The notes below the pieces were generated by a model, which worked only from the letters and a program-made list of their open reading frames with translations, made no database searches and had not been told where the DNA came from. From an uncultured archaeon (GTDB taxonomy: Archaea; Asgardarchaeota; Thorarchaeia; Thorarchaeales; Thorarchaeaceae), in the NCBI GenBank assembly GCA_964558645.1, contig CAZLEV010000025.1, forward strand, positions 1 to 39,438: a stretch of DNA of 39,438 nt, written 5' to 3'. The translations under genes and the position numbers were made by a program. Numbering within the stretch: the stretch's first letter is position 1; the number at the start of each line of letters is the position of its first letter. Of this stretch, positions 1 through 38,762 are shown one piece after another.

Positions 1-1
1 G

Positions 2-3000
2 GACAGAGTCCAGTAGTGCCTTGGGTGAGTCATCGTCCCAGTTGGAGTACTCCTGCACCGTAGGTCTGACCTGCATGGTCTCGTTGGTCACGAACAGAGA
101 GTCCTGGACAGGTTTCTGCAAGGGCTTCGGCGAGTCAGAGTACTTCCCGGGCTCGTACCAGTCTGCGCCGTTGTAGTCGGACACGGTCTTCTTCACGAAC
201 CAGTCAAGCTGGTCATTGCCGTACCACCACTCATCACCATACTGCTGCTCCCACAGGGCACGAAGGATACTCTTGGCAACCAGTGTGCCTGAGGCTGCGT
301 CCATGAAGGTGTCAAACAGCGTGGGGTCTTTTGCGATAAGCTCATCCAGCCAGCCCTCGCGAGCGTACTGCTCCAATCGATCCTCCACGGTGTAGTCGAG
401 TTGCACCGAGGAGATGAGGTCACGGATGGGGTTGTGCCCCCAGACGTTCATCTGGTTGGCCCGGGCGATGTAGTCCATATAGGCCTCCGAAAAACTAGCG
501 TTCATCCATGCGTGGTCCATAGAGAGCATCTGAGACAGGCCAAAGGTCAACACACCACCACCATCCGGGTCAGCCTGAAATGTGACTGGGTCGGCATAGC
601 GGGTGGGTGCCTGATTGGCCCAGGTACCGTACTCGATGTAGCGCCTGCCAGACTCCCGCAAGTACTGTGTGTCAACTGACCAGAGCGGCGAGAACTCCTT
701 GAAGTCGCCGAGAATCAGCTTGCCTGTATCTGTTGCGATGCCCCCAGCAGACTCGTGACTGAGGGTGGTGGACATGACCGGCATCCATTGACCGGGAACT
801 TGCCCGTCGTCCTCTGACTGACCCGGAATCACATTGGGGTACTTCAGCTTTGACGACGCAGGAAGATGTACCTGCCAATAGAAGGGACTGTAGGCCATGG
901 ATGCGGAGGCTGACTGAACGAAGTCGAAGCTGAGCCGATAGTTCAGTTCATTCACCTCTGTGTCGTCTTTGAAGTCTACCTCTGTGACAACTAGGTTCTC
1001 AGACACATCTGCAGTGTACATGGCGGTGGTAGCGGTTCTGCTCCGCAACTCAACAGTACCCAGTGAGATGAGCTGGTAGTTCCTGACAGTGGCCCTCATC
1101 CTGTCGTCCCACACACTGCCACCCCGACCATATTCCATCAGTGCCCTCTCAAGCAGCAGTTGAGCCTGTGCCTGTCTGCTCGGCAGTATCCTGCGCTGTG
1201 ACTCAAGCTCCATTAGGATGCCAGAGTCCAGCACAGGTAGAACCATGGAGGCCTGCTCGTCCACTCCCTGATACGTTCTCACTCCGAACTCCTTGTGAAT
1301 TCGTATCCCCTTTATCTTGAACAGGACTCGAGTATGAAACTCCGAAATGAAATACAGGTCGAAGGATAGTCTGTCGATGAATGCATCATAGAAAAGGTCC
1401 GTGTTCGACAGGTCAAAGGACAGGGTTGTGCAAGCTTCTGATGTCAGCGAATTTGTTTCACTCTCAATCTCTAGTGAATTGAACACATTCTCCGGCGGTG
1501 TGTAAGACATTCTTGATGAAGCATCCCAGACATAGTAGCCATCTGCATCGACACCCTTCAAGACTGCAACAGCTTCGCCATAAGAGTCGTAGGGTATGAT
1601 GTCAATGTCAATAGAGGTCCTTCCGGGGGCGAGGACGAACTCGTAGTCAGGCCCGTTAAGATTCCTAATATTGCGCCAACACCCATCATCGAGCAGTTCG
1701 TCGACTCTAAGGCCAGTATCACGACTAGCGTCTGTGTTTGCACTGAGATTGAATCGAACATAGCGAACAATGGCATCGGCGTTTACCGCCAGGTCATAGG
1801 TGTACTCCTGTGCCCAGTACTCTGGGTCATCATCACTCTCCTCGAAGAGGCCGGTATACGGGATGTCCTTGGGGCCGAACCGTTTCACTGCGCCATCAGA
1901 CCGATACCATGCCTCCGCCGGCATGTCCAGTACGTATTCCGGCCCCCGCGGCCAGACACTGCTGGTCCCGTCCTCGTGGGTTGTCATGTAGAAGGGGATG
2001 TTGCCGTCAGTGGTGAAGTAGCCGTTGAACTCCAGATACCGCTCGGCAATGGACCCTGAGTACTCACCCTTGTAGATCGTGTCAGGTACCGCGTCCACGC
2101 TCATGATCACCGAGCCCGCAGTCTCCGTCAGAGGAGTGACCGGCCTCCCCGTCCCGTCGTAGCCACCACTGTTGATGTCCCTGAGCATGTAGTCGAGCAG
2201 GTCATCGGCATCCAGCACCACCTTCAGACCACCTATCGCATCAGAGGCCATGATCACGTTGGTCTTGGTCCTCATCGCGTCGGGGTCCCGATAGTAGCTT
2301 GGAGAGCCACCCTCGCGGATACGGTGCATATGGTCAGGGTCGTAGTAGATGGCGGCCATGCGTCCGTGGTGAGGCACGTAGGCCCTGAAGCCGTCCTGCG
2401 CGCTTGCACCCTGCACCTGCAGCCTGAACGTGTTCAGGTCGTTCGTCCCGTTGGCAAAGGTACGGACGTGGATGGTGTGGAGCCCCGTTCGGAGATAGAC
2501 CTGGGCCTGATCACCATAACCGATGTCCAGCTGTCGCCCATCCACCCAGAGCTCGCGTCTAGCACCGTCAAGACCAAGTCCATGGGGATGCTCCAGCACC
2601 AGCGTGTAGTCCCGTGTGGTCGGCACATCGAGAATGGTGGAGTAGTGCTGGTACCACCTGGCACCCATCCACGACGCCATCTCCTCATCGTAGCCAGCCA
2701 TGAACTCTCCGTAGACACTCTCATTGTAGAAGCCCGCGCGGTACCAACCGTTGAGGAACTCCAGCTGGGCGTCAGGCATGAAGTACGCAGCAAGGACTTC
2801 GGGGTCGATGTTGAGCACTGACCGCGATAGCCCCATGTTCACACCCTCGGTGAGGCCAAACTGCAGTGCTGAACCGTACTCGTTCCATGCTGTGCTGGCG
2901 ACCATCTCGGCAACATCACCGTAGCTGAAGTCCTCGCGGATCACCTGCCTCGTGCCATTGTGGGTCATGACCCTGAGGTCGTCCACCAGATAGCTCACGT

Positions 3001-6000
3001 TGCCGGTACAGCCAGCCATGTCCTCCACGAAGGCGACGTCTGTCAGATGGTCCAGCTCGTGGTACTCACTGAAGGGCTCGATGTACTGGGGACCGATAGG
3101 GTTGCCACCCGCGTCCACCTCTCCATAACGCACATGGCTTCTCAGCAGGTCGAACTCCCACTCAGACCATGTGTCGTGTACAAAGGTGCTGTCTACTGTG
3201 AGACTCGCTATGATGACAGGGTTGAGGCCACCCTCGGGGAGCCACTCGTACTTCCTGACCTCGAACTGGTAGAGGTCTGCATCCCACTTGATGGGGTCTA
3301 GCATGCTTGGGAACCAGGTGTTGTCCAGACCCTCCTCCCAGTTGTAATGTACCTGATAGACCCGCTGGGCCCGCAGACTCATGGCACGGTCTGTGGCCGG
3401 GGCGCGATCGATGAACTCCAGCACCGTGCTCCAACCACTCGGGTAGTTGTACGTGGTGGTTGGCTCCTCCTCCGACACTACGGGGTCAGGGAGAGGCGGG
3501 TCGGTGTCGGTCCAGAAGTCCAGATACTGGTAGTAACTCACCGTGACATTGTGGGTGTTCATACCAAGGTGTCTGCGCAGTTGGCTGGGCTCGTGGGAGT
3601 CCGTCACACGGAGTGCCCGGTCCATGACGTCCCGCGGAGAGGCTAGCCAGTGGGTGATGTAACCCTCTTCGTCCACGCCGTAGACATCCCGCTCTGGGTC
3701 GGCCAGTGGGTCACGCCTGTCCTGCGACTGGTAGGCAAGGATGGGTGTCAGAGGCTCCGGTGAGGTCTCGAAGACCGCAGTGATACCATCCGAGACCGTG
3801 ACCGTGTACAGGTCAGGACACTCGCCCTCTGTCACGTTGAGGCCGAGGAACAGGCTCACCGCATCGAGATGGATGAGGCGCCGCATGTCCCGCGTCATGT
3901 TCAGGTAGTAGAGCTCGCCAGAGTCTGATGTTCCCTTGAGGCCCGACACGGTGACTGAGTAGGGTGACGCAGTCCCGTTTGCCCACAGATAGTTGACAGT
4001 CAGGTTCGCATCCCCAAGGGTCCTGTCAGCAAGGTAAAGCAGAGAACCACGCTCCACCATGTCCAGCTGGTCGACGCCCAATGACACGGGCGTCCCGGTC
4101 AGCGGACGGGCATCCAGAATCTCTGGTCCTGCGAAGGCAGAGCCGCTGACGTTCAACGCACTCGTGAGGTCGATGGGGCCACCAGTACTGAAGACCCCGG
4201 CCTCCATGGTGATGTCGCCGTACACGAAGACCCCGGCATCGCTGCCGAACCTGTGCAGGCCAAGGCCCTGCGTATCGCTGTACCGTATGGAGCTATCGAG
4301 ATAGCTGTACCAGAGGGAATCACTGGCTCTCACCACGGTATACAGCGACTCATCCTGTGCAGGGGCCGTGGAGTTGGTGAGATAGACATCATCGATCCAC
4401 ATGCCGACCAACCCATTGCAGCTGCTGTTGTCAGAGAACACGATGTCCAGTCCCGTGATATACCGGCCTCCCAGGGAGGTGTCCAGTCGGGACGACAGGG
4501 ACAGGAAGAGCTCCTCAGTCGTGTAGTTGCCCACCTCCTTGCCCACCTCGAAGTACGTGTCATTGTCCCCTGAGAGCACGTAGGCATAGGATGAGTCGTT
4601 CAAGACGAACCTGAACTGGTACAGGGCCTGGGACAGGATATCATCCTGACGTGCCTTGAATGAGAGGTGCAGGAAGTCGTGGACCGCGGGGTCGATTGCA
4701 GCTCCTGAGAACAGACGGCAGGTGATGTCCTTCTGGTTCACCCACGTGACGACTCGAACAGAACGATGCCCCTCTGTGAGGGCTGTGTCATTGTACGCAG
4801 CGGCGTCTGAGGCTGGGCTCAACTGGATATCGCCTGTAGACTCGACTCGGTTCACATAGAGCAGGTTCGGGTAGTCCTCAAGCTCCTGCCATACGGTGAC
4901 GCTCTCGATCTCCACTGGTCCCGAGCCATATCGTGTTGTCCAGTTGATCATGCCCGTACTCGTGACGGCATACGTCCTGTTCACCGGGATGTCTCCGAGC
5001 CAGCCATGTAGGGTGAACTCGACCCTGTGTCTACGCCAGTCCTGCACGGTGACCTCGTCAAGCATGATGTCTGTCTCGTTCTCGCCAATGGTGAACTCTA
5101 CCGCATTGCTCCTGACATGGAGGTTCAGGTCGTGACCGTCGGTCCAGACACGGATTCCGGCATTCGGGGCATAGTCGATGCTCGGGGGTATGCCGTCCTC
5201 AAGGAACCACACGCTCTGGTTGGCCGGCCCCGCATCGCGGTAGTCCACGGTGCTCACGAACATCCGTAGCAGCCTCGAGTCACTGATCTGTAATTCACTG
5301 TCTGAGGCAATCCAGCTGTCGAGGTTGAAGAGTGTGATACCTGTCTGACCGTAGCCATAGACCTCAAGATAGTCCGTTCCACTCTCGGTCTGAACCTGCT
5401 CCGCAGCACCGAGCCACAGCTCGTCAAGACCCAGTATGGGAGCTGCTGTGTTGTTCGATATGAACTCCAGACTCGTGACGACGGTGAACCCGGGACAGAG
5501 CTGGGATACGTTCAGCGAGATGGCATTCCACCCAGCAACAAGGCTCAACGCGGTCTGCACAACCTGCTCATCACCCTGACCATAGAACGTCAGGTAGGTG
5601 CTCGCTCCTGCCTCAGCCCTGATACGACCGTAGAGCATTGTGGCGGGAGCAACGGCAACGTCCAGGTCGTCATAGCGGAATCTGACCTCCGTGCTGTCAC
5701 TGACAGAGAAGCCGAAGGCCTCGATATCGAGTGAACCCTGCGACTCCGACGGCAACAGGAAACCAGTCGTGGAGAAGACTGGATCGCCCACCGAGAGATG
5801 TGCAACATCCATGATATGACCATCGACCCTGAGGAGGATGCGTTCCAGGGTCTCGATATCAGGCACAAGGTCTGTGATCGACTCAGCAAACACGTACCAC
5901 GGGGATGTTCCAGAGCTACCGGTGGCGGCAAGCAGATTGATGGTGCTACTGGTGCCATCGTGTTCAAGAACCGCCTGGAAGTCCGATGCTGCCGGAGGAG

Positions 6001-21000: not shown

Positions 21001-24000
21001 CGATGAACTGGATACTCATGGGAGCCTCAAACACTGCGAACTCGGTGCTGGTCGGGAGTTCAAGCACCTGAGTACCGCCCAGACCTGCCAGTTCTAGGGT
21101 GACAGGGTCCTGTATTGTGTCTGTCTTGTACAGTATCTGCAACGTGGAGCCGATGGTGCCCGCGAGGTGTGTGTCTATCACGGTACGACCCGTCAGCTCG
21201 ATGTGATTGGTATGGTTCACGACTGCGTAGGTGGAGTTCGATACACTGGCAGAGAGTAGCCTGTGGTCCAGCAGGTAACCGTCATCGGCCAGTTGCGGCT
21301 GGCTCCCGGTGCTGACCCAGTCAAGGATGAAACTGCTGTTGGCCTCTGAAGAAACAGCCACGAATGTGAGATTGCTAACCGTTCCTGCGGGCAGCTCGAT
21401 GAGGTCAAGACCAGAGACGTCGGCAAGCAGCAACTGGTCCCCGTCGTAGAGGGAGAGAGTGCAGTTGGTCGTGTACGAGGATATACCCAGATATGGCGCT
21501 GAGATGTTGACGTTTCCGATGGTGATGCCGTACGAGGCAGGGTCCTGAGAGGGATAAATCTCCACATGGCCAGAGTCCTGAGCAATAGTTGCGTTGTGTG
21601 TGATCAGTCCCTCGTCGGTGGAGAAGTCGGCACCGTAGTGCCCTGCGACTCTCCCGAAGTCTGAATTGGGAATCATCAAGAGTGGTGTTCTGTCGCCCAG
21701 ACTGTAGCCCACATCCACACTGAAGTCATCAGAGCTGTACGAAGAGCCACCAATGGATGACTGTGTCCCCCAGAGGTCCCTGAAACCTCCATCTGTGCCA
21801 GTCAGCACGTAGAGCGTGAAATCCATGAGGCTGTACTCGTTGTCTGGACCTATTGCAGTTGGCTCAAGGACGGTGACAAGGCCCTGTCCAAGAGAGTAGC
21901 TGGCCTCGCCAGCCCGCCCTCCAATGGCCGAGGACCAGATCTTGTTCACTGCTGGATGGGTGATGTCTACTCCATAGGGATTGTCGAAGACCGGGTAGCC
22001 GTGTCTCTGTATATAGAAATCATCCTGATTTACGTCCCATGCATGCATGAGGATATCGGACTCCATGAGCAGGGAGTAGCCTGCACCAATCAGTGGCATG
22101 CCAGCAGCCTCCATCAGGGTTGCGGCATAGCTTGGGGTATTGGTCTTCTCCCACTGGATGATGTTGGTCAGATGGGGGATCCAGACAGGAGCGACATCCG
22201 AGGTCTTCGAGGAGTCCACGATGGTCAACGTGTGCGGACCCTGACTGATCTCGTAGCCCAGCTCCACTGACAGTAGACGGGCATCGCCATCGGGAACATT
22301 GCCTCTATCCAAGAGGCGGACTCGGCAATACTCTCGATTATAGTCGGTCTGCGATTGTTCCGAACCACTGAGTCGAATCCTGTCAGCGACGAGATAGCCG
22401 TCGAGGTAGACATCGACAGTGTGAGCCCGGGTGACATTCTCTGCCCCGATGATGGGGAGCAGGAAGGTCTGGTAGCCGGTACCTGCATTATGGGTATAGG
22501 TGACTGCCAGTGATGGGCTCTCGCCCGAGCCTAGCTGCATGAGGGTGCTCTGAGCAGTCCTCTTGTTCTGATATGTTGCTACTGACTCGTCTCCGGAGAG
22601 GTCATAGTAACGTGGCTCCAGCAGGTGCGCAAACGAGCCGGGTAGAACCCCCATCTCTGCCAGCTCGAAGGTGGGTACGACCCGTGCTTTGTAGAGGCAC
22701 TCATCCAGTGCTGTGGTGCCGGCTGTGACTAGCTGGTTTCCCTCGCGTACCCATTCGGCTAGGAGGGAATGGGTCTTCGACTGTCCGACCATGAGCAGCT
22801 CGTAGGGTACGTGGTCTTCCATGAGCACCAGAACAGCCCGTTCGCTCATAGTGACAGTCTCCACGAGCTTCCTAGCACCGATGGCCTCGGCATTCTTATA
22901 GCCAAGAATCTGTAGACCTGCAACAAGGAGCTGAGCGGTCGTACTGTCACCATAGACTAGCACCCTAGAGTCCTTAGGAGAGGTCTCAGGAACGGTGGAG
23001 TACATGGGTCCATACTTCTCCTCGTAGACTCTGTGGCCCACATGAAGGGTGTGGGTGGAGAGGTCGTAATAGGTCCCACAGACGTAGACCTCCTCCTCGA
23101 AGAGTTCTGGATGGAATACCGCCCACGACTCCAGATAGTCCATGCCAGCCTCCAAGACTTGGTCAAGAGACGAGTCATGCCCGTAGTCAGAAGTATAGAA
23201 GCTGGACCGTCGGTGCCAGCCATAGAGGTTTCTGTCGGTGTAGTGAAAGGTCATGCTGAGGGTGTACCCCGCAAGGTTGCTGCTACCGATATTCAACACA
23301 ATCCCTGATACATGATCTTCTTTGATTCCCGTGCCTGTATAGAGGACCGGCATGGGGCCATCAGCAATGACTCGCACAGTGACCTCGCTGTCAGGGGAAA
23401 CTGTGACCACTTGCGGGAGGTCGAATGTGAGAAGGCCAGATGCAAAGGCTCGGGTCGTTGCAGAAACAGTCGAACCTGATGCCTCGATGGTGAGGGTGAG
23501 GTCAACGGGTTCCTTGATACTCGCAAGCTGGATAGAGATCTTATCGATGCTAAGAGCCGTCCCTACATGCAGGCGCTGAGCGATAAGTCCTGACAACAGA
23601 TCCGGGTTGAGAACGCCAGTACGATCACTCCCAAGCGTGATCACATCACTACTCTCATCTGCAGGTTCATTGACCCACTCGCGGATGTGGAACGGCGGGT
23701 AGTCCCAATCATAACAGAGGGCACCCTGATAGTACTCATCCAGAGCGAGGGTTGACAGAATCATCTCCTTCAGTTCCTTTGATGGTATGTCGGAGGTCAG
23801 CATCGCCTCAAGCCAGCCGAGTGGAACAGAGTAGGCTGTGCTCCCTGTTTTCTGTGTGATTGTCGTGGAATTGGTAGAGAACTCCGGATATCTTTGTACC
23901 CATTCCATTGCCAAACCGACATCGATATCCGATATTAACGGGCCGGGGTCGATAGTGAGAAGTCTGACCAGCCTTTCCAGAAGCCAAGGGTGCGCATCAA

Positions 24001-27000
24001 GCTGAAGTCCAACCAATGCGGCTATTCTATCTGCTAGGGAATCGACTCTTGGGCCTCTCGGATACCCTGGAGTCAGTCTTCCCTCTTTATGTAATTGAGA
24101 GGCTTCATCGAGGATGGCTTCTACCTGCCTATGAGTAACATCCACTTCAGCTGCATGAAGGAGTAAGTCAATAGCCTTCAAAGAACATTTCCGCATATAA
24201 GCAACATAGTTCGCTTCCTTCCCGTGGCCGGAATCCACCACGTACTTCGCAGCCTTGGCGTGTTTGTTTACCAACAGAGCCAAGCGCTCGGCAACATCTA
24301 GCCAAGGAGTTTCGAATGCCCTTGGTGAAGATGCTGATATGAAGAACTCGTTGTTCGAGTAATCGATACTTCCGCATACAACTTGCGAATAAGTGTTGGC
24401 CCCAGTGAGATCCATACGCCTTTCTATGCCAGGCGTAGTGCTCCCAGTGGTCTTGGATAGAGTCTTCACAATCAGACTACGCCCGGTCCTTTGGTCAAAG
24501 ATGAGGGCCATGGCATCACTTGGTACATTTGCATCGATGTATGATGCTCCCTGTGGTGCGTCCATGAGGATTTGGATTGTGCTGTCAATGTCTGCCATAT
24601 CAGTACTGCGCAATGCCGCGAGAACTGCAAATCTATACAAAAAAGCATTGCCAATCGAACCTCGGCGTTTGCGGAGGTTCCATCCACGTAGCTTCTCAAG
24701 ATACACCTTCACTGTTTCGCCAACATCTACGGTATCGAGGTAAAATGCACTGAGGCTCTCGAAGTGCGCACCCAAACACCCGGATAGAGCATATGAAGGC
24801 ATGAAAACCATTCTGTCAACCCAGTTGGACAGTCCAGCAACCGTTAAGCGTACCTCCTTCCTACCAGGTTTCGGTTTGTAGTATCTATTCCCCTTTGGCA
24901 CCCGGTCAAGGAGAGGATGATGACCTTCTGGACCATGATTTCCAGCGATGTCACTGAGGTCTTGAATTAGACTTGCTATCTCTTTGTTCACACCCTCGAC
25001 CCTTTCAGGATTCGAGTCGATGTCGAGTTCTTGCAGTGACTCTATTCGTGTCCGGAGATCAGTCAGGATGCTTAGTACTGAATACCCAACCCATTCGCCA
25101 TTCTCCTCGTTCCATGTTCCTCTCCAGAACGCATCGTGTCCAGCAGTCTGGAAGGTAATCTCTTCTTTGGTGTTTCCATGGATGAGCCCAGTGTGGACAG
25201 TACCCCCACATCTTATCACATCGATGAGGCGGTCAAGCCAGGGTGGGACGTCTGGTGTAGCCAACGCTACGTTGCCGTAAGCGAGGTTACGGTCTGAGCC
25301 TTGGAACACTAGTGTCCCATCTATCTCTAGCCGAATGAGTTTACCTTGTTCCTTTCCGCCCTTGTAGACGACTCTCGCTGGTTTGGTTCCATCCCTGAAT
25401 AAGAGCGAACCAGCTACCGGCAGTTCTTTCATGAATACATCGGAGAACTTGCTAGTTCTCGATCCAGCCTGTGACTCCAGTGGACCTCTTACTACAACAA
25501 AGGAACCATCAACTACTGGGTTAATCTCACCACTGTGCAATTCTTGCACGATTCTAAACTCGGCTGGTTCATTCTCTCCCCAACCCCATCTAGCATATCC
25601 CTTTTCCGCCTCGGCCAGTCTCCTTGCTCGTGTTTTCGTTTCGTCTGATTTGACATAGGAGCTGTAATGAGGAAGAACGTTGGTGCGTGCGTGTACATCA
25701 CCCGAAACAAATAGGTCACGCATAGTGTGTCCAGGTTTTCGCCTCTTTTCTGAGCCGGGTCCAGACCCGAGAATAAGAGAAGTTTGTACGTGTAGCGTGT
25801 TTCCATCGAAGTAATAGAAGTCCCCCCATTGTTCTTCCATAGGGTGCTTGGTTTCTACAACTGCCGCCGGCTCTTGATTATGCGACCAAGCAACAAGCAT
25901 CGTGCGCAAAACTGTGTCTACTTCCCTCTCTGAGAGTGGCTGAGCTTCTGAGAGAACTCGTCCCTTCATGTAATAGGGAATCTCTGTCGTAGAGATGTAT
26001 TGGTCACCGTCAGGGCTAGCCAATACTGCAGCCTCAAAGAAGCCTTCAGGGTCCAACTGGATACATCCTGCGTCGTCAGGTTCTTTATCTAGGATTCTTT
26101 GGGCAACAGCGGCATGGTAAAGCTTTCTTAGACTCTCATGAGCAAGAACCTCGGTCTGCGGGCGACCGAGAAGAGCATAGAGAGCTTCCCCAAGGAATCT
26201 GACAGGTTTCTGATGAAGCTCTATCGAGCCATCACCCCAAGAGCCAATAAAGGCAATAGGGGGAATAGGCTGATCATACTTAGTCCCCAACAGAGGACCG
26301 GAACTCTCGAAGTGTGTAGTGATATGAGATGTACCGGCTTCTCGAACCATAACTCTAAGCACCGTTCGAGCCTTCTTCGATGCTTTGAGAGTCTGATGGT
26401 GGCTTTGGACTAATGCAACGGTATCCCCTTCTTCTAAGTTCAGAGTATGTGACAAGAAGCCGAGAGAGGCAGGCTGGGCTGCCATCGTTGCATATGTTAG
26501 TATTCTGTTTCTAGTTTCTGTTTCAATACCCATCTTCTTGACAACCGCAGATACAAGACAGAGGAAGGTTTCTGCTGTTGTGCCTATCTGACCGTTTCGA
26601 CCGTATTCAATGGCAAACGGGCCTCCGCCCTTCGCCGTCGTCCTCATCCCTTCTAGTATCATGTTTGCAATAGCTATCACTGGCAGCATCTGACCATCTG
26701 TACCCATCTTCTGTTGCCAGAACTTCTCCAAGTAGTAGTAGTCAACGCCCAGTTGAATCGCGAGACGGTCAATGGCGATACGCATCACGTCGAAGCCAAG
26801 ACTCACACCATTCACCCGCTCATTGAAGGCGTTCACGATGGCTGCAGACAGCCAAGGATCTTGGATTGCCCGGGTATCCCTATGGTCGCTCACCTTAACA
26901 AAGAACTCTGCAAGGTATCTGTCATGTTCAACACCTGTTCGGGTATCAATGTCGTCACCCCAAAGAATCATCTCCGTGAGCAAGAGGGCCGACTGTGCAA

Positions 27001-29230
27001 GCTTGTCAATATCACACTCACCGATCTCAAGGATTCGTCTTAGTAGCGAATTTCGCTTGCTTGCGCCCTCAACCTGAGGAATTGTCTTGAGGAATACCTC
27101 TAGACCATCCTCTACGTCGCTTGTATCCCTCATCCTTGCTAAGAGATTTACGAGACCCTCATAAAGGCCTTCCGGAACTCTTACTGCAATTCCTCTAAGA
27201 CCTGTAGCTAGCTTATCTGGAAGACCGATGGTAGTATCTGCCCTCAGATGTTCCTTCCCTGCGGCAGCTCGGCGTGCATTAGCGATTCCTGCCCAGATAT
27301 CTATCTGATGCTCTTCCCAATAGACCTTGTAGTTGGGTTCATAGAAGCAATTCCTTACTCCTGCACTAAGCAGTTGTGCGGCTTCTGAGTCTTTATGCTC
27401 GCGTACTGCAAGTGCAACGACATCCATAGCGTTGATGCCTGTGAGTCGCCCATTCTCGAAATCCTCTATCGTCTGCTGCATTACTACTCTCTCTATGCTG
27501 TTTCCTGTGAGCTGGACCTGCTCATACTCAACGAAAATTTTCAGATTCCAGTTGCAGAAGTCGTTCAGGAGACTTAGTGTGTTCCGACCTAGAATAATAT
27601 TCTCCACATCTTCTACGACCATCGCGGGCATACGGTTTCTGTCCACTCGCTGAGGCTCAAAAGCACGGCTGGTTTTCGTCCAGAAGCGATATTCTTCGGA
27701 ACCAGAACGAACAACGATGGTCTTGTTGAATCTGAGTCCCACACCGGCTTGCTTGAATCGCAGTTCCATGGATGCGTCCCATATGCTGATGGCGTTCTCT
27801 GTGTTCTGAATCTCCATGCGATAGGTGTATTCTTCTCCATCTTCCCAGCTCACAAACAAGTCAACTGCCGTGATGGACACATGGCTGACTAACTGACATT
27901 CGACCTCCTGTATGCCAAAGGAAGACCCCTTCGTGGGCGTCCAATCGTAAACGAAATCGCCAGATGGGGTACACTCAACCAGGGTGATCTCTGGTACAGA
28001 ACCGAGTGACCAAGCCGTCCCACCGAAGGGCACACCGGGTAGCAATGAGTGACTTTGTGTGGTCAGGTCGCCTGTACTGGGTAGGAAGGAGAACACCACT
28101 TGGATGAGGTCGGTGGAAATGAACATCCCCATCAATAGGAGCACAGTGAGAATACCCCAGCGTCTGAAGTGTACCGCAATCACCGACATAGAGATCCAGA
28201 ACAGCAGTGAAACCACTGTTGCCATGGGCACAGGAGTAGTACTGGTCAGGGGACTCCGAGGGCTGACCAGGGCAAGATGGTCATATCCCGGATGCTCCTG
28301 CAGTATGCCCAGTGCCTGCACCGCACCGGACATCGTTGATATCGAGGTTGTCGACTGGGAGCTGGCACTAAGGCTATTGTAGACCCGCATTCCATAACCC
28401 CGGAAGAAGACCTCATCCAAGGCTCCAAGATTATCCAACACGCTCAGAGCCTGGGCGAAAATTGTATCCGAAAGGACGTTCTCCTTGACCTTGTCGAAGA
28501 TGTCTTCACAGACCCACTCCTCTGGAAGCATGTGCTCCAGAACCACCGTGACCTCAGACGGCGAGACCACAAGGTTCTCACAGAGCTGATACACCATGAG
28601 CCGTTCCTCGAACGACAGACTCTCCAACTGAGATATCGTGTACTCGGGAATTCGCACATTCTCATCAGAGAGGTCGGACGCGTGCAACGGTCCCAGACCC
28701 ACCACATCTCTCAAACCAGTGGCATCGGCCGCCATGGACAACCAGTATACGTGTTCAATGGTGTCAGATCGGACCAGTGTGAGCAGGTCAGCCTCTCCTC
28801 GCAATGCTAGATCATACAGATAGTCAGCTGCATCGTCGATGACCTCTGGTGACAGGGCACCGAGCCGCTTCAGGCACTCCATGGCCAAGGCCGTGGCCTG
28901 TAACGAGCGTTCCTCCACTCCAAAGTCGCGAAAGCCCCCGATATACCGGTTCTCCAAGCCCAGGATAGAGTCGACAATCTTCTGGCGTGTGTCCCACGAG
29001 AGCGCGTACTCCTCCCGTAGTTCGGCTAGTATGATCATATCAAGCGTGGCCTGAAGTGTCGGTTCGCCATCGGCGGTATCGGCATATCCGATACTACGCT
29101 CATGGGCATCAACCCAGTTGGTATGTTCAATAGACTCCTCAGCTGACACCACCGTCACGAACATGCCGCAAATCAGCAGTAGTGATAGCAGTGCAACTGT
29201 CTTTCTGATTTTCTCAGCTCTAAACTCCAT
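2..29230 (-). CDS. Giant (at least 9,743 aa, C-terminus beyond window) membrane-anchored multidomain surface protein, adhesin/effector-carrier-like
   Basis: ATG at 29230 follows a GGAGGG SD-like motif and reads MEFRAEKIRKTVALLSLLLICGMFVTVVSA. I translated this frame by hand over most of its length and found no stop down to position 2 (ends ...WDDDSPKALLDSV). Every minus-strand ORF in the track below 29249 lies in the other two frames, as expected if this frame is one unterminated ORF. Confidence 0.95.
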   Translation of the reverse strand, partial: MEFRAEKIRKTVALLSLLLICGMFVTVVSAEESIEHTNWVDAHERSIGYADTADGEPTLQATLDMIILAELREEYALSWDTRQKIVDSILGLENRYIGGFRDFGVEERSLQATALAMECLKRLGALSPEVIDDAADYLYDLALRGEADLLTLVRSDTIEHVYWLSMAADATGLRDVVGLGPLHASDLSDENVRIPEYTISQLESLSFEERLMVYQLCENLVVSPSEVTVVLEHMLPEEWVCEDIFDKVKENVLSDTIFAQALSVLDNLGALDEVFFRGYGMRVYNSLSASSQSTTSISTMSGAVQALGILQEHPGYDHLALVSPRSPLTSTTPVPMATVVSLLFWISMSVIAVHFRRWGILTVLLLMGMFISTDLIQVVFSFLPSTGDLTTQSHSLLPGVPFGGTAWSLGSVPEITLVECTPSGDFVYDWTPTKGSSFGIQEVECQLVSHVSITAVDLFVSWEDGEEYTYRMEIQNTENAISIWDASMELRFKQAGVGLRFNKTIVVRSGSEEYRFWTKTSRAFEPQRVDRNRMPAMVVEDVENIILGRNTLSLLNDFCNWNLKIFVEYEQVQLTGNSIERVVMQQTIEDFENGRLTGINAMDVVALAVREHKDSEAAQLLSAGVRNCFYEPNYKVYWEEHQIDIWAGIANARRAAAGKEHLRADTTIGLPDKLATGLRGIAVRVPEGLYEGLVNLLARMRDTSDVEDGLEVFLKTIPQVEGASKRNSLLRRILEIGECDIDKLAQSALLLTEMILWGDDIDTRTGVEHDRYLAEFFVKVSDHRDTRAIQDPWLSAAIVNAFNERVNGVSLGFDVMRIAIDRLAIQLGVDYYYLEKFWQQKMGTDGQMLPVIAIANMILEGMRTTAKGGGPFAIEYGRNGQIGTTAETFLCLVSAVVKKMGIETETRNRILTYATMAAQPASLGFLSHTLNLEEGDTVALVQSHHQTLKASKKARTVLRVMVREAGTSHITTHFESSGPLLGTKYDQPIPPIAFIGSWGDGSIELHQKPVRFLGEALYALLGRPQTEVLAHESLRKLYHAAVAQRILDKEPDDAGCIQLDPEGFFEAAVLASPDGDQYISTTEIPYYMKGRVLSEAQPLSEREVDTVLRTMLVAWSHNQEPAAVVETKHPMEEQWGDFYYFDGNTLHVQTSLILGSGPGSEKRRKPGHTMRDLFVSGDVHARTNVLPHYSSYVKSDETKTRARRLAEAEKGYARWGWGENEPAEFRIVQELHSGEINPVVDGSFVVVRGPLESQAGSRTSKFSDVFMKELPVAGSLLFRDGTKPARVVYKGGKEQGKLIRLEIDGTLVFQGSDRNLAYGNVALATPDVPPWLDRLIDVIRCGGTVHTGLIHGNTKEEITFQTAGHDAFWRGTWNEENGEWVGYSVLSILTDLRTRIESLQELDIDSNPERVEGVNKEIASLIQDLSDIAGNHGPEGHHPLLDRVPKGNRYYKPKPGRKEVRLTVAGLSNWVDRMVFMPSYALSGCLGAHFESLSAFYLDTVDVGETVKVYLEKLRGWNLRKRRGSIGNAFLYRFAVLAALRSTDMADIDSTIQILMDAPQGASYIDANVPSDAMALIFDQRTGRSLIVKTLSKTTGSTTPGIERRMDLTGANTYSQVVCGSIDYSNNEFFISASSPRAFETPWLDVAERLALLVNKHAKAAKYVVDSGHGKEANYVAYMRKCSLKAIDLLLHAAEVDVTHRQVEAILDEASQLHKEGRLTPGYPRGPRVDSLADRIAALVGLQLDAHPWLLERLVRLLTIDPGPLISDIDVGLAMEWVQRYPEFSTNSTTITQKTGSTAYSVPLGWLEAMLTSDIPSKELKEMILSTLALDEYYQGALCYDWDYPPFHIREWVNEPADESSDVITLGSDRTGVLNPDLLSGLIAQRLHVGTALSIDKISIQLASIKEPVDLTLTIEASGSTVSATTRAFASGLLTFDLPQVVTVSPDSEVTVRVIADGPMPVLYTGTGIKEDHVSGIVLNIGSSNLAGYTLSMTFHYTDRNLYGWHRRSSFYTSDYGHDSSLDQVLEAGMDYLESWAVFHPELFEEEVYVCGTYYDLSTHTLHVGHRVYEEKYGPMYSTVPETSPKDSRVLVYGDSTTAQLLVAGLQILGYKNAEAIGARKLVETVTMSERAVLVLMEDHVPYELLMVGQSKTHSLLAEWVREGNQLVTAGTTALDECLYKARVVPTFELAEMGVLPGSFAHLLEPRYYDLSGDESVATYQNKRTAQSTLMQLGSGESPSLAVTYTHNAGTGYQTFLLPIIGAENVTRAHTVDVYLDGYLVADRIRLSGSEQSQTDYNREYCRVRLLDRGNVPDGDARLLSVELGYEISQGPHTLTIVDSSKTSDVAPVWIPHLTNIIQWEKTNTPSYAATLMEAAGMPLIGAGYSLLMESDILMHAWDVNQDDFYIQRHGYPVFDNPYGVDITHPAVNKIWSSAIGGRAGEASYSLGQGLVTVLEPTAIGPDNEYSLMDFTLYVLTGTDGGFRDLWGTQSSIGGSSYSSDDFSVDVGYSLGDRTPLLMIPNSDFGRVAGHYGADFSTDEGLITHNATIAQDSGHVEIYPSQDPASYGITIGNVNISAPYLGISSYTTNCTLSLYDGDQLLLADVSGLDLIELPAGTVSNLTFVAVSSEANSSFILDWVSTGSQPQLADDGYLLDHRLLSASVSNSTYAVVNHTNHIELTGRTVIDTHLAGTIGSTLQILYKTDTIQDPVTLELAGLGGTQVLELPTSTEFAVFEAPMSIQFIESMTFETNNTMQIAYVDVSTCNDVMLAFDRQVLYREHGGYTANITGGELQVTGEGTVPLFDLMADTRVLNYLHLDHALGDGTNVSMQFITAHGNYTIALNADQTVYEIPAGVNVTMSLALVFDMAGSVNISTLALSVDPTPLSDRRDVSVSGYDDMRSYTMPQCGPLLAWGHAQVDLTEPEGNYLSHYTTDILEMTDRRLVVKRTSLSGTQSVVVIIDAFGRVTLSTNSSDMVFSLEERAVTYSDNYAVTHAGPNMTDTLQSRPAYAAMYDSHRGFGVRGLTGTTVTADITNSHFKFMLAENTPIQLLSHLAPTIETIAGIAVDLNFATEAIMISQSGILSEWSGKVETQNVAFWDGSFTEDYALHETFDSQGSWIVDEDLSTEERALMFHHNGQLNITLNCNTTDAEAMHLQLNYLSIDVSTYEMLRWSLAGTGDLHVTVYFNLTDSQTSILYEVRHDTPTIATTEFTNLYRQMTDDSYADWTIQGIELWITEVDTEVIANKSIVLDTLDIYTISDWEVVLTPDTTVNSVFEGDGVLFLRAEKGKEIRLRRQLEQADVLRNRIFQWRQRVGMGSQMNVTATNSTCESSSTIVDAATWSVLTEDIQELVDAVSIEITLSAGSKEEGEGHLDWMRIVEPYTSQYDWNSFADGSWDEDGGFLLMSFSYVPEAPDHGPRASWSGDTSGHSLEVWSSYSADPGSFSNGGHLSIHGALEYDYSTWTFGTVTQNNEYNLYSYGSTYQSSGTGSSTTQYWAQSFSVSSGRTVGRLDVYTKVDLTSGYPSNEDNVRWEIVSDSGGEPGSSVQRSGYADWTTSYSWRAISFSSLGPGTYWLILKPMTVSVWYPPDLIYPDGHWEYYHSTVYWRQGGNGYSSQYSGYHSGSLWQTYSDDMYMQVHESRVYDLGSYWQDLNLYVHWTVGGQNYQSELTANGQTKSHAGATDVWITAGPSGSIDSSFTNINPTNVKTFYRRPDASVSAHYWNDPDYEYNSVQYTKWTLPNSYYIPTYGDEDSSVKGKLIYTIHEQWLGHGGDEYWYAGCSNPSIGGSGTYRTVTLTGVGYGSSNDVVVEWYDSFAASDIVVDPESYYVGQWRDVSDSDAPTDSSLRCYVENNHASESGGDWDVKLYTWKDSVMTPRDLLTLDNADSGHTDSLTLLESNGYSDGAVVYSDARYLSKYLFYRNYDGHYIRRPALDSQWVTDDAGQPVQEAQADTVCKFWAEVDWMFGSAALSMAWRVGSGGTIYINNYDSFTDLGDESGRWSFWLTISPEWESEYLYYRFNTSEYGGHTWDNSGDWYSIYVSDDDPDAPSIENLNIQTDETISDGDSSRVDDGATHGRLRIYCEVVDASAISTPQLSYEWAGGTSGTVDMQAAAPQSGYRSYWEYWLPIEWTSDCSETLDFDIYVVDQDNSPESSTAFVYNVVVSDDDTASPSITGWNPATPTHDQDLSDSGVLSDASGIDTGLSSITWCWDDDPGTEYNCDSCTITQDSWSITISETHWSEDDEGRTLRVIFRVYDSDLDRGTVDRLLTTETKYITIADDDTTAPVIENGRSDPNYEVYDDVVQPIRLMADITDDELTGGTITFEYRFGTESYSVNGVHDGVQGDGTTWYYDIPYAVWSAKITENGQELSLYFRVSATDSDNTPLTTVLEVDPLTTIIDADTSAPSVQGYWPTTGASIMDGDYSQGGQMTNITVSVLVYEVSGFSEARMQYWVSGEDYTEADAPIITELVAGETYNITWEIPGTWLASRVPSQVYWRVRLTDDDQAPASTGWVQYHFFLLDDDDSPPDITDVQYDDPKKEQTLNTIRVYSTDASGIASGTITYWYDGGPNTTDSMSYHGGEGYLYYSITPPDGTEGKYCHFVVTVTDGDNDRVGDSMTRTSSEYTFLVEDDDITAPTFSSPVTSGDYDEWDTGHYNLTITVTDSSGIDWVKVQYRYGSGDWNEYQMARPFPGSLPDVYRHSIPYSEWIAHCGMTLYWRVYARDSDASPETGYWSWDPPATAGLLIDDDTAPPEVSDTSPADGSSITDAWLSGQSGENMRVEFRVTDLHSSVDPTSVYYNWSFFGGPWSGWILATPLGDDWYYFEMPYDIALNNTGRTFRYCIRATDTDNDRTNDALSLEESMPGDYHWFMIRDDDISAPDVAHTVPDSPTSNTAFDLSFDVQDPDSGVYDVVLYYRRAGSTDPWNTEDSFMVQGTEYTFSLTLGDEYEYTGLEYLLYAQNGDDDRTLAIDSEAKWQGSYGSYLTLAQAEDAAWVLAIADDDIAAPSIVTIDSSAAVDCEGGTWTLDVTLQDMSAIEQVLVSVDQGANQSLTLWASDVDGDYFSLDSYYYRIALSGLTQGLHNLTIFAKDADGTMDHDRLWSAQDHSFYVADDDTDAPLMNIWVPEVEYDEELIIYANVTDASGLASITVTYWQGHDVHTADMVLDATYNDTSWRYRFAVSADDTYYGDTFYAYVQATDNDLDFGNMTDPLSAQSYTVSTEILDLTEPDIDALDGPTGSQTCSSDNRVYITVSEPVDASHASHALINYTAGEGWFTTEMGLVNITTSSGDHIVVFMGHVPLQYGSTLSYRVIVYDHAGNIAVSSTQEVISIDDVTPPLFEYSRVVGAEPGVNGTLVVSLYEPVAASGVKNVTVAISLDMGGPENVSMSYNAEADTWILTLPALEEGSTLDYYFVAFDHAGNWLQTATVSYTIRSVLQPHDIQTENLMLIEEANRVVTFRTMFATETEGVYSLVPIVSNGLANFTMWLDGQEYLPGSQVYLEGCVHIIMVRIETGDRYTAWAVQVQNHKSQLTSEGGALTWNTLAPAPRSTQLRLDYAWALGINPLIEYFAMSRHDDTDSIDGDFEGDYGAWDHSGGTAFVWDGYYSSQSLRLSDSSGTAGWMQYSFTNGTRAYALSMFIKRDVDHTSGVDVSVVFTDGTDYNVTLMVGHLQDWTRFEVLLPDKAMASIRIEQNSSHYDNRLMRFDQVSLVKNTFGLTSWDISLKENLSPHDLLGTESGTVSGFFAAYTEFMVQEETNAVLRIQFGSSLNGTQVEVLHYGESIATVNATTDIPLRVREGIDAFALYITAANATPDSLRAMLRYTNGTAMPVTCLGQPGGLRAVTSERDSPYVPIVSPEWEKISEAHLTASIIEDENWLSTTIDMDMDEFDVFHDEVVLSNSTELDITATPVLKSVFSSNGTGLYVRYRARLWSAITEDAVWVTTHWVSLGEEELTTDLAALAAELYGTSAGEYTRLLEIRLYLADLERDGEIATDQRVELVTVLKSRVAYEYRLSPLITSTGTLFHDFDIASATHNTTEDAFHGYGAALIGPDYSPLNMTMYQSITEGTTIRFVANESITTIVTISLDVGVYNLTVSDSPTGEWSVEYTSATPLHSGWTTYKIDIYRALAGIARDLGLALFGARITRLVFESLSPAKVDSVEIVEPESASLELSYWGVTLSWDTHRLGLSVSTLAGVLERHAPYYSVDYRGQRYTTSDPSWYNVLSLTMLSSSDSTTVVQSAFGAQMIITDTYQISASGFIDFQRDVQRLDNDSFYANEVMMSFEYSIKQTITNLQMDSDSVPLLSLSGVAFEQGPSRTAMVDIDPAEENVDSPYFSRDLSYVWDLSAATAMYASDGDIMSLIPAQNRDSMWVEWNDLSISLDVVNWLVFEVTDVIDCDAYIQVTSDTDTQEFWFNVTGRFAEPLTLSGSSVTAIRIGAIRTAPHSRVRLDWVGLRDRHLVAESDSVRYPLPTWHHPDLVDDFVDLERWTVQDYEVDEDNWFKAGVNSRSLTMKGESYFGSEATHIDRVSTKGLSIDTVRYPNLQIDYVFTDVSFGPNPTDYVLGVLNLTFLSAAGAEDSYQVYLPLDQFRVIENVTARCGAGWITAIDIVVYSYGNQWSSSSYTLWVEDLIISDDVDAYQPVVYHSGLSESFASVDEWIELDGDILVDNGKDVASLQRHDGKERANFTRPYSLLLGPGYTVEFEVSWASADEFWVALGLENGSVLDIITTAPSKDVFRYTFDDYALLSVCNITLGIGGGGVKLDYLTIAHHIGATITFDSTAGWTGDAAAVHAEDGSLTIESDGSAWSQSYTLPEGLDTDLYSTLAIDYSLDSGSALPEVRLRALAGHEADPITGLRASEVYDEVWLDGFRPNSAFQTLYIDMAEQFDGYLTYRLDLRGAAADKGYNLTIHSIRALQRDDDWARLDVSNRWMDCITDWGLITLDAMTTESSGSVAAQQEVDLNGDLVRYISLSYQTVADDDVSLELSVLADGTRYAVTLSAAASERRVVIDLMAILETQPATVSGVAVCLNWTGKTDTEHVWVTIHDLDLYASAPSPIGQSLTFSGLLSYTSESDFKMETIIVPNVGTEWVDVAFSQTYTEPIVMATVEIAASQDPSTDAVSRRVTDVTSTGCKVRLLSPEYAYGSGSITPGTVHLLVVEAGEWSIDGLPRIQAGSITTTQVSHNSDWTATESITLDSSLWADVSSVEYFVTVATENPAASGTKWIEAWTCGSGTGEPPTLTDFRLSMNAAEVDAQNTHPEETLHYIVMEAGSYTVSGTELTIGRTAVTVEDYSKDNTEAHGQPYTPQWGVAMQLAMDGTNGGWANWKDSPFDATYIEPYIQEDLASDSETTHVAEEVSYAIASASLVYAAPPVLRDGSFDSITVTRDSVKFETIVVSDPSIDDWVDVSFQNEYDEPVVIATLELGTDQDPSTDAIGKRVRGITGTGCQVRAILPDYAYGNGFISMQTKIHLFVIEAGSWDIEGLPKIQAGTITTGRVSYKNHWTEYATVSLDSNLWAGVSSAEFFSSVGTENPAASGTKWIESWVTGGGQKTNPTLSSFGVGMCAAEVSVQNDHPSETIHWLVVESGTFSFDGMHMKAGRTADAIKHYANDNREAHGTSWTPAFGLAMSLALDGGDGGWTNWEDSPFDSTYIEPYIQEDRYSDSEVGHTDEDVSYLICDTASFSHPGTLTYPGDDPELLLENRALFARLDAQVEAGEITAEWDLSDIRVSDDYLTVRWRYSAQTPPAASDFQAVLEHDGTSSTINLLAATGSSGTSPWYVFAESITDLVPDIETLERILLRVDGHIMDVAHLSVGDPVFSTTGFLLPSESQGSLDIEAFGFSVSDSTEVRFRYDDLDVAVAPATMLYGRIRAEAGASTYLTFYGQGDEQVVQTALSLVAGWNAISLNVSQLCPGFTVVTSLEFISNNTAAPILGLDELWLGAAEQVQTESGTDYLEVYGYGQTGITLFNLDSWIASDSELQISDSRLLRMFVSTVDYRDAGPANQSVWFLEDGIPPSIDYAPNAGIRVWTDGHDLNLHVRSNAVEFTIGENETDIMLDEVTVQDWRRHRVEFTLHGWLGDIPVNRTYAVTSTGMINWTTRYGSGPVEIESVTVWQELEDYPNLLYVNRVESTGDIQLSPASDAAAYNDTALTEGHRSVRVVTWVNQKDITCRLFSGAAIDPAVHDFLHLSFKARQDDILSQALYQFRFVLNDSSYAYVLSGDNDTYFEVGKEVGNYTTEELFLSLSSRLDTSLGGRYITGLDIVFSDNSSCNGLVGMWIDDVYLTNSTAPAQDESLYTVVRASDSLWYSYLDSSIRYSDTQGLGLHRFGSDAGVFVYGDITMEAGVFSTGGPIDLTSALNVSGSAFAGPEILDARPLTGTPVSLGVDQLDMVERGSLLYLADRTLGDANLTVNYLWANGTASPYSVTVSGLKGTSDSGELYYLNMTRDMRRLIHLDAVSLFLGLNVTEGECPDLYTVTVSDGITAVFETSPEPLTPILAYQSQDRRDPLADPERDVYGVDEEGYITHWLASPRDVMDRALRVTDSHEPSQLRRHLGMNTHNVTVSYYQYLDFWTDTDPPLPDPVVSEEEPTTTYNYPSGWSTVLEFIDRAPATDRAMSLRAQRVYQVHYNWEEGLDNTWFPSMLDPIKWDADLYQFEVRKYEWLPEGGLNPVIIASLTVDSTFVHDTWSEWEFDLLRSHVRYGEVDAGGNPIGPQYIEPFSEYHELDHLTDVAFVEDMAGCTGNVSYLVDDLRVMTHNGTRQVIREDFSYGDVAEMVASTAWNEYGSALQFGLTEGVNMGLSRSVLNIDPEVLAAYFMPDAQLEFLNGWYRAGFYNESVYGEFMAGYDEEMASWMGARWYQHYSTILDVPTTRDYTLVLEHPHGLGLDGARRELWVDGRQLDIGYGDQAQVYLRTGLHTIHVRTFANGTNDLNTFRLQVQGASAQDGFRAYVPHHGRMAAIYYDPDHMHRIREGGSPSYYRDPDAMRTKTNVIMASDAIGGLKVVLDADDLLDYMLRDINSGGYDGTGRPVTPLTETAGSVIMSVDAVPDTIYKGEYSGSIAERYLEFNGYFTTDGNIPFYMTTHEDGTSSVWPRGPEYVLDMPAEAWYRSDGAVKRFGPKDIPYTGLFEESDDDPEYWAQEYTYDLAVNADAIVRYVRFNLSANTDASRDTGLRVDELLDDGCWRNIRNLNGPDYEFVLAPGRTSIDIDIIPYDSYGEAVAVLKGVDADGYYVWDASSRMSYTPPENVFNSLEIESETNSLTSEACTTLSFDLSNTDLFYDAFIDRLSFDLYFISEFHTRVLFKIKGIRIHKEFGVRTYQGVDEQASMVLPVLDSGILMELESQRRILPSRQAQAQLLLERALMEYGRGGSVWDDRMRATVRNYQLISLGTVELRSRTATTAMYTADVSENLVVTEVDFKDDTEVNELNYRLSFDFVQSASASMAYSPFYWQVHLPASSKLKYPNVIPGQSEDDGQVPGQWMPVMSTTLSHESAGGIATDTGKLILGDFKEFSPLWSVDTQYLRESGRRYIEYGTWANQAPTRYADPVTFQADPDGGGVLTFGLSQMLSMDHAWMNASFSEAYMDYIARANQMNVWGHNPIRDLISSVQLDYTVEDRLEQYAREGWLDELIAKDPTLFDTFMDAASGTLVAKSILRALWEQQYGDEWWYGNDQLDWFVKKTVSDYNGADWYEPGKYSDSPKPLQKPVQDSLFVTNETMQVRPTVQEYSNWDDDSPKALLDSV
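1980..2360 (-). other. GATase1-like alpha/beta domain, copy 2 (N-terminal part)
   Basis: AIYYDPD...VVLDADDLLDYML...VIMSVDAVPDTIY...SIAERYLEFNGYFTTDGNIPFY aligns by eye with copy 1. Confidence 0.5.
2450..2670 (-). other. PA14-like beta-sandwich segment
   Basis: YSTILDVPTTRDYTLVL...LDGARRELWVDGRQL...VYLRTGLHTIHVRTF. A similar segment lies at ~12700-12870 (GVYSL...MWLDGQEY...VYLEGCVHIIMVRI). Confidence 0.5.
6197..8008 (-). repeat. Tandem duplication (~315 aa period) of a module of three H-type-lectin-like subdomains
   Basis: Unit 1 is 7145-8008 and unit 2 is 6197-7063. Shared blocks: WVDV.F...Y.EP.V.AT, GLP.IQAG.ITT, ENPAASGTKWIE, DSPFD.TYIEPYIQED. Each unit has three ends of the form (H..E).[VLI][HS][YWL].V.E.G. 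Confidence 0.8.
12110..12500 (-). other. CBM4/9-like (galactose-binding-like) jelly-roll domain
   Basis: IDGDFEGDYGAW...GYYSSQSLRL...DWTRFEV...FDQVSL resembles the NGDFE...W...SL...W...D.V.L pattern. Confidence 0.45.
12940..17110 (-). repeat. About 12 tandem Ig/cadherin-like repeats (~105-125 aa each) with acidic DDDxxxP linkers
   Basis: Linkers at approx. 17100 SDDDPDAP, 16735 SDDDTASP, 16390 ADDDTTAP, 16035 IDADTSAP, 15663 DDDDSPP, 15340 EDDDITAP, 14992 IDDDTAPP, 14610 RDDDISAP, 14232 ADDDIAAP, 13896 ADDDTDAP, 13562 LDLTEP and 13238 IDDVTPP. Internal D(A/S)SG(I/V) and DxD/DxAGN motifs recur. Confidence 0.85.
18500..18760 (-). other. Choice-of-anchor-R/DUF4082-like beta-sandwich
   Basis: YWAQSFSV...VRWEIVSDSGGEPGSSV...WRAISFSSLGPGTYWLIL matches the AQSF...D..G.PG...GTYW pattern. 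Confidence 0.55.
22680..22950 (-). other. Class I glutamine-amidotransferase-like alpha/beta domain, copy 1 (N-terminal part)
   Basis: RVLVYGD...AEAIGARKLVE...AVLVLMEDHVPYELL...SLLAEWVREGNQLVTAG, a typical GATase1-like strand/helix pattern with no recognisable catalytic Cys elbow. Confidence 0.5.
28082..28225 (-). other. Two-helix transmembrane hairpin (aa ~336-383) of the giant protein
   Basis: MATVVSLLFWISMSVIAVHF-RRWG-ILTVLLLMGMFISTDLIQVVFSFL, preceded by a P/S/T-rich linker (SPRSPLTSTTPVP). Confidence 0.75.
28850..29095 (-). other. Prenyltransferase/squalene-cyclase-type (alpha/alpha barrel) repeat-like segment in the giant protein
   Basis: Two repeats, IGYADTADGEPTLQATLDMIIL and GGFRDFGVEERSLQATALAMECLKRLG, match the GG[FY]...T..A...L..LG pattern of Prenyltrans repeats. 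Confidence 0.55.
29141..29230 (-). other. Sec-type signal peptide of the giant protein (aa 1-30)
   Basis: Basic n-region (RAEKIRK), hydrophobic h-region (VALLSLLLICGMFVTVV) and a VSA|EE cleavage-like site. Confidence 0.8.
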
Positions 29231-32409: not shown

Positions 32410-32854
32410 GCCATCAACACCTGAGCGATGAAAGTATATGCTCTGTATAGAAGTGGTTACTATGAATGACATCCGTAGTATTTCCGCCAGCCACTATTCT
32501 CAATGGACATTCAGCCCGTGTATTGATATTCTTTTCCTGTGCTGGTGGTGTTGGCCGAGTCCAAGTAGGATGGTGTAATCCGTCATGTAGTGGAACCCCT
32601 ATAATGATCCTTTCTTAGCCGGTTCCGCCGTCCAGAGCATTCTACCCCCTCTCACAGGAGTTCTGAAGTAATCAAAGAGCATTAACTACATGAACTACGT
32701 GGTGAATCGGGATGAGTGGCGCAGCTGAAACAGTAATTAGGCCCAGTCTGGATGAGATTCGGAACGGCAATTCCAGTTGCAGTTCCTCGCATCTCAGCGT
32801 CTGAAGCAAGGCTTAAGTGGCCCCTTGCCACATCTCTCGCAGGCTCTGCTAGTG

Positions 32855-37093: not shown

Positions 37094-37094
37094 G

Positions 37095-38580: not shown

Positions 38581-38762
38581 TCAATAAGAATGGTCCTGAA
38601 TGTAGAATTCCACTGGCCAATCGTGTTGCGGGTGGTAGTACAGTGAATTCCCTCGCTTTCAGCTCACTTATATCCGGCCCATGCATACACTACAGCTGCT
38701 CACGGGGCATGTACCGAAAAAGCTAAAAGCCTTTTTGAGTAAAATGTCGCGAGTTGCTGCCC

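Follow-up and report, generated by a model that had tools for sequence, protein, structure and literature searches.

The 39,438-nucleotide (nt) stretch analysed here (the window: GenBank CAZLEV010000025.1, the entire contig C25 of a 3.63-Mb archaeal assembly of the Thorarchaeaceae) carries on its minus strand a giant gene that, judged from its sequence, is real and encodes a surface protein of roughly 10,200 residues in an Asgard archaeon. The features of this protein make it look like a contact weapon or a self-recognition device. We consider the chances about evenly balanced that it represents a contact-dependent, polymorphic-toxin-like system of Thorarchaeota housed in one giant exported protein varying at both ends.

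The giant open reading frame (ORF) is uninterrupted and has colinear homologues. As proposed by an earlier sequence-only reading, translation from the ATG at 29230 to position 2 at the window edge yields 9,743 codons with zero stops. Across all frames of the window, no other stretch free of stops exceeds 461 amino acids (aa), and the second-longest ORF of the genome has 2,916 codons. The frame reaches the end of the contig and its 3' end is consequently cut. A complete homologue of 9,975 aa (G026:C28) is matched by 18 of 20 query segments of 500 aa and a homologue of at least 10,134 aa (G003:C81) by 16 of 20; both are colinear with the giant ORF except in the repeat region, with 23-51% identity per segment. 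This colinearity makes an assembly chimera or a chance frame very unlikely, and both were rejected. A same-genus orthologue (G073), 62% identical at the end of the giant ORF, runs 478 aa further, indicating a full length of about 10,220 aa. Homologous proteins were found in genomes of the same family, which carry the NCBI name Candidatus Thorarchaeota, one being labelled Lokiarchaeota by its source. A search for related loci among the genome contigs gave no match, and Pfam and NCBIfam searches with the protein in four quarters returned nothing beyond weak immunoglobulin (Ig) and carbohydrate-binding module (CBM) matches.

The anatomy of the protein, encoded throughout on the minus strand, indicates a tethered surface filament. 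A Sec-type signal peptide (aa 1-30, 29141-29230; hydrophobic core 12-30, by hydropathy) is found at the same place in G026, G003 and L044-L050. It is followed by a helical domain resembling prenyltransferase alpha/alpha-toroids (aa 31-320, 28271-29140), an assignment made via homologues with weak PF00432 matches (P0007, E 5e-4; P0010, E 0.023); Pfam gave no match for this domain of the giant itself. Hydropathy further identifies a transmembrane (TM) hairpin (aa 334-378, 28097-28231; segments 334-352 and 360-378) that has a short basic loop and is kept in homologues, G026 and G003 among them. Under the positive-inside rule, the hairpin probably forms the membrane anchor and everything after it would lie outside; no hydrophobic segment separates the variable block that follows from the stalk. 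The block ends at a conserved junction, DPGP...DWxYPP (aa 1761-1855, 23666-23950). In the stalk, Ig-like units of 109-127 aa are repeated about 12 times (aa 4040-5430, 12941-17113), every one beginning with an Asp-rich DDDxxxP motif, with matches to CBM_56 (Pfam, E 3.7e-6), Big_5 and Big_3_2. Further along lies a tandem duplication of about 320 aa (aa 7038-7678, 6197-8119; copies 52-56% identical) that resembles H-type lectins, a lead based on Atlas feature scores of 0.93-0.94 to H_lectin-containing clusters, which have low recognition value. The duplication is present in G003, and G026 has extra Ig-like repeats instead. The conserved C-terminal region (aa 7700-9743, 2-6133; 29-62% identical to relatives) leads to a hydrophobic tail located beyond the contig, which in relatives consists of 3-4 hydrophobic helices. 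The membrane tether and the adhesion or glycan-binding modules anticipated from the letters alone are therefore supported, and signal peptide, hairpin and stalk together give the exported multidomain layout with trafficking and presentation regions typical of polymorphic toxins.

The block behind the anchor (aa ~450-1760, 23951-27883) is hypervariable, K/R/E-rich and avoids N-glycosylation sequons. Across more than 20 fused block versions, median identity rises from 15% ahead of the junction to 35% behind it. In one close pair (L044/L045), synonymous divergence (dS) is 0.76-1.26 in the block. In the adjacent flanks it is 0.11-0.42, and one other stretch of the scaffold reaches 0.72. The ratio of nonsynonymous to synonymous divergence (dN/dS) in the block is 0.18-0.28. 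High dS combined with dN/dS below 0.3 fits mosaic allele replacement under purifying selection, and positive selection was ruled out on the dN/dS of this sole close pair. Fused blocks contain 8 sequons where 110 are expected (ratio 0.07), while two control motifs occur 115 and 109 times; the corresponding ratio in this genome is 0.93 for cytoplasmic and 1.70 for secreted ORFs, and the scaffold is sequon-rich. From this avoidance we infer that the block is exported past the glycosylation machinery and has been selected to stay bare. Its lysine plus arginine fraction of about 0.11 is cytoplasm-like. The sequence-only reading had described a compositionally foreign cargo block: the block is distinct and variable, but a foreign origin is ruled out by GC content at third codon positions (GC3), which is near the genome norm in the block (0.48, 12th percentile) and an outlier in the scaffold (0.69, 99th percentile). 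Homologues also exist in other giants and as stand-alone genes. As a single query the block had no match in 85 family genomes and no Atlas match, homology emerging through alignments only; a structure model of the 1,140-aa block was poor (pLDDT 45) and fold searches on it were meaningless. In two split giants, L039 (G078:C40) and L046, the frame is broken inside the block; the G078 giant stops after about 3,450 aa in total and its genome has no tail match.

The end of the block probably contains a nuclease-like domain. Members of the PD-(D/E)XK superfamily share an alpha-beta-beta-beta-alpha-beta core with an Asp where strand 2 begins and (D/E)xK in strand 3, and aa ~1518-1646 (24293-24679) likely adopt such a restriction-endonuclease-like fold, with Asp1572 (24515-24517) and Lys1593 (24452-24454) as candidate motif residues. 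Across 26 aligned copies the Asp is invariant (26/26) and the Lys is found in 20, with a second acid, an Asp, four residues before it in 10, where the query carries Lys1589. The best fold-search rows include the defence nucleases SPARDA and Cap4, and one member weakly matched the restriction endonuclease model of the contact-dependent inhibition (CDI) toxin EC869 (E 0.02), which we regard as a lead. The domain alignment gave nothing significant against PDB sequences or PADLOC. Overall, these features suggest an effector or nuclease activity of the block.

Stand-alone versions of the block are found in a nuclease context. These proteins (1,190-1,235 aa) consist of the block alone, end just before the DPGP junction and have neither signal peptide nor TM segment; they contain 46 sequons where 67.5 are expected (ratio about 0.68), a total that leaves out two RNA polymerase subunits and includes one duplicate row. 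Their acidic leader of about 70 aa is common to LAGLIDADG-like proteins (a weak Pfam match in G042, by motif in G027 and G030) or HNH-like ones (motif recognised by eye in G030), and three of these leader loci follow a membrane-bound HerA/FtsK-like ATPase gene. The shared leader with interchangeable bodies suggests, through guilt by association, that the block occupies a slot elsewhere held by other nucleases. In a tree, stand-alone blocks nest among query-like fused blocks with support of 93/96; as this falls below the tool's mark, the tree does not establish that they arose from fused versions. The leader loci form part of a second variable Thorarchaeota locus (L057, L058, L060, L086-L089 and L051; G027:C42, G030:C259, G030:C215 and G042:C134), in which a HerA/FtsK-like ATPase of about 900 aa precedes a leader protein whose body is either the giant's block or a set of helix-turn-helix (HTH) repeats joined to a LAGLIDADG or an HNH-like part. 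C2 of this genome encodes two HerA-like paralogues. Among further stand-alone loci (L081, L082, L052), the genes of one clade immediately precede RNA polymerase subunit A' in three assemblies, and another clade is located tail to tail with the S19e/dsDNA-binding operon.

A second variable end, formed by the tail and a partner gene, is situated past the contig break and hence outside what the sequence-only reading could see. As the query's own tail was not assembled, tail data come from relatives and cassettes. Tails are present in 16 of 70 family genomes, frequently as several truncated copies (up to 7 matches in G015), and in none of 230 other Asgard genomes. At least two tail types occur behind a shared core, with moderate variation within one type. 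Type A tails are followed by partner A in 10 loci and type B tails by partner B in 11, with no cross pairs; part of these loci trained the hidden Markov models and related loci are not independent. Partner A (about 255 aa) possesses an N-terminal TM helix and many sequons (53 seen, 21.5 expected), partner B is soluble and pleckstrin homology (PH)-like (bPH_3, E 1e-4), and G026 encodes a third partner, a membrane protein. Both types are carried by G011, G015 and G085. Partner A is present in 6-7 copies in this genome, tandem arrays (C13, C24) accounting for five; orphan tail cassettes lie on C26 and C15. A variable tip, a cognate downstream gene, orphan cassettes and tandem immunity-like genes are the genomic hallmarks of polymorphic toxins, and by analogy the partners may confer immunity. 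The tail, with its 3-4 hydrophobic helices, has no Pfam match; a recognisable toxin is expected at this end in polymorphic toxins, and here the nuclease-like domain is N-proximal. A predicted complex of tail A and partner A scored 0.00 and was counted neither way.

The same cassettes explain the contig break. Positions 1-94 (minus strand) are the start of a repeat common to C25 and C26, its first 55 nt being exact. Extension into C26 was nevertheless rejected, as this contig carries a truncated copy of the gene end that begins after unrelated DNA and has two frameshifts, making it an orphan or a collapsed consensus. C15 begins with a second, shorter copy of the gene end; at the start of C24, two partner genes come after the final codons of a tail. 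Judging by these copies, the tail is a multi-copy cassette collapsed in assembly, and it is inside this cassette that the assembly broke. Gene callers and fragmented assemblies can thus hide such giant genes. A 244-aa membrane-protein gene (L015:5189-5920, G000:C26; L016) has partial copies, 86-96% identical, on C15, C1 and C14, next to the C15 orphan tail. A broken internal fragment of the giant gene (L017, G000:C8 86.8-87.4 kb; window 3895-4175, aa 8240-8445, 47-62% identical) leads into a small Cys-containing ORF that is also located 3' of partner genes on C1 and in G073.

A contact-dependent system would operate as follows. The protein would be exported by Sec and tethered by its TM hairpin, with the glycosylated Ig-like and lectin-like stalk of about 8,000 aa reaching and binding a neighbouring cell. 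The C-terminal tail would insert in the neighbour's membrane unless blocked by a matching partner. This partner, with its protective role, would be encoded by the gene just after the tail, and variants would come from tandem partners and spare tail/partner cassettes. The block of about 1,300 aa would be an exported, N-glycan-free, nuclease-type payload which, more speculatively, could be released near the DPGP junction and cross into the target cell. The polymorphic-toxin-like layout of the proposed contact-dependent system stands, with effector display as its predicted activity. The active site of this genome's copy may be weakened. Several points weigh against a delivered toxin: the payload sits at the anchored end, no block-specific immunity gene was found, and cytoplasmic stand-alone versions are tolerated. 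It is a tentative and rather doubtful proposal that all parts form a new Asgard weapon architecture, in which a tethered 10,000-aa protein combines an independently swappable nuclease payload at its anchor with a swappable membrane-inserting tip, a kin-protecting partner acts at delivery and the payload is reused in the HerA-ATPase-linked locus.

A possible, if less probable, alternative is a self/non-self recognition adhesin that does not kill, with tail and partner forming a surface recognition pair and the block a variable extracellular module such as a decoy, an inactive nuclease fold or an enzyme acting on outside nucleic acid. The TM helix and sequon richness of partner A, which indicate that it lies outside, fit this explanation, as do the moderately conserved tails, the missing block-specific immunity gene, the degenerate motif in the query and the precedent of VARTIG, for whose variable Ig module several hypotheses are open (PMC8416519). 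Recognition leaves unexplained the strong sequon avoidance of the block, its invariant Asp, the stand-alone versions among other nucleases and the soluble PH-like partner B. It is improbable that the block is instead a producer-side nuclease acting on incoming DNA or in DNA exchange, for example inside an unexported or re-entrant segment, with a tail that fuses or bridges membranes. The cytoplasm-like composition, the cytoplasmic stand-alone blocks linked to a HerA/VirB4-like ATPase and the defence nucleases among the best fold rows would agree with such a conduit or defence device, but no hydrophobic segment divides block and stalk, the sequon ratio of cytoplasmic proteins is far from that of fused blocks and PADLOC gave nothing significant.

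Most of the length being Ig-like or lectin-like and some copies being split or truncated (G078, L046), the protein could also be a plain giant adhesin or surface glycoprotein, recombination and decay having left its variable stretch and scattered fragments as neutral debris. This is quite unlikely: the block is under purifying selection, conserves catalytic-type residues and avoids sequons, and tails pair strictly with partners, which form tandem arrays. Least probable is a mobile-element protein like the aloposon giants Otus and Ephialtes: scaffold GC3 suggests recent acquisition and a transposase-like ORF adjoins one orphan tail (L063), but there are no tandem giants, neither a scan of ten upstream ORFs nor the G026 flank revealed a MinD/ParA-like ATPase, the G026 and G078 copies lie among housekeeping genes and the 230 other Asgard genomes gave no match.

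The remainder of the window contains further repeats and genes. A dispersed repeat of about 215 nt lies upstream of the giant gene (29482-29697), with copies 70-79% identical on C6, C8, C1 and C15; a 134-aa ORF over it has no Pfam match and may be a shadow. Positions 31108-32472 encode a secreted 454-aa protein, probably a beta-propeller, with a Thr/Ser linker, a C-terminal TM anchor and no Pfam family. Two overlapping minus-strand genes (36584-37442) encode an acidic protein of 115 aa and one of 173 aa with a C-terminal HTH (weakly TrmB/FeoC-like); C9 has a second copy of part of the neighbouring region. A DNA methyltransferase gene (N6_N4_Mtase, 38650-39438) is cut by the contig end, and C9 opens with a copy 95% identical to it. 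Both join the same 55-mer of C34, indicating another collapsed repeat. Elsewhere in the genome, the 16S rRNA match (L001, G000:C10:124412-126689) covers 2,278 nt compared with a 1,478-position model, an excess that suggests about 800 inserted nt (introns or an N gap).

Little has been described of contact-dependent conflict or kin recognition in Asgard archaea, the prokaryotes most closely related to eukaryotes. The system offers small testable pieces, namely a nuclease-like domain of about 300 aa with predicted catalytic Asp and Lys and two types of tail/partner pairs, and sequon avoidance in an exported domain could serve as a general marker for membrane-crossing cargo in archaeal proteins.

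A literature search found no paper describing this giant-protein family. Halomucin of Haloquadratum walsbyi (about 9,200 aa) is likewise a giant secreted archaeal protein of similar length; it is likened here by description and is not known to have a variable nuclease module or partner cassettes. Halomucin is counted among huge archaeal proteins (PMC11573180), and the size by which the giant had been set apart from it is no record, as most archaeal proteins above 10,000 aa belong to Asgard genomes (10.1101/2023.11.21.568195); size alone is therefore not new. Otus and Ephialtes of Heimdallarchaeum are also Asgard giant genes without annotation, encoded as tandem genes of 3,000-6,000 aa with a MinD/ParA ATPase at tRNA sites (PMC8813620); in contrast, a single gene of about 10,000 aa is present here, in G026 and in G003, and was not found outside Thorarchaeota with the queries used. 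VARTIG of Thermococcales is a large archaeal Ig protein of which one part is hypervariable and the genes downstream vary; its function is open between conflict and self-recognition (PMC8416519). It varies in a C-terminal Ig domain, while the giant varies in its 1,300-aa nuclease-like block and in the hydrophobic helical tail that takes the place of such a domain in relatives. Compared with the bacterial polymorphic toxins CdiA-CT/CdiI and Rhs-CT/RhsI, the giant has no detected filamentous-haemagglutinin or RHS repeats, is tethered by an N-terminal TM hairpin, carries its nuclease-like module near the anchor instead of at the C-terminus and has two variable ends, and Pfam and NCBIfam offer no family for its tail, partners and scaffold apart from weak Ig, CBM and PH matches. 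It shares with them a long exported repeat stalk, a variable tip with a linked downstream partner, truncated orphan tips, tandem polyimmunity-like partner arrays, a restriction-endonuclease-fold domain and a patchy distribution (PMC3482391). By its genomic layout the giant would thus work like a polymorphic toxin system, with a predicted toxin role and an enzyme-like module that is not C-terminal.
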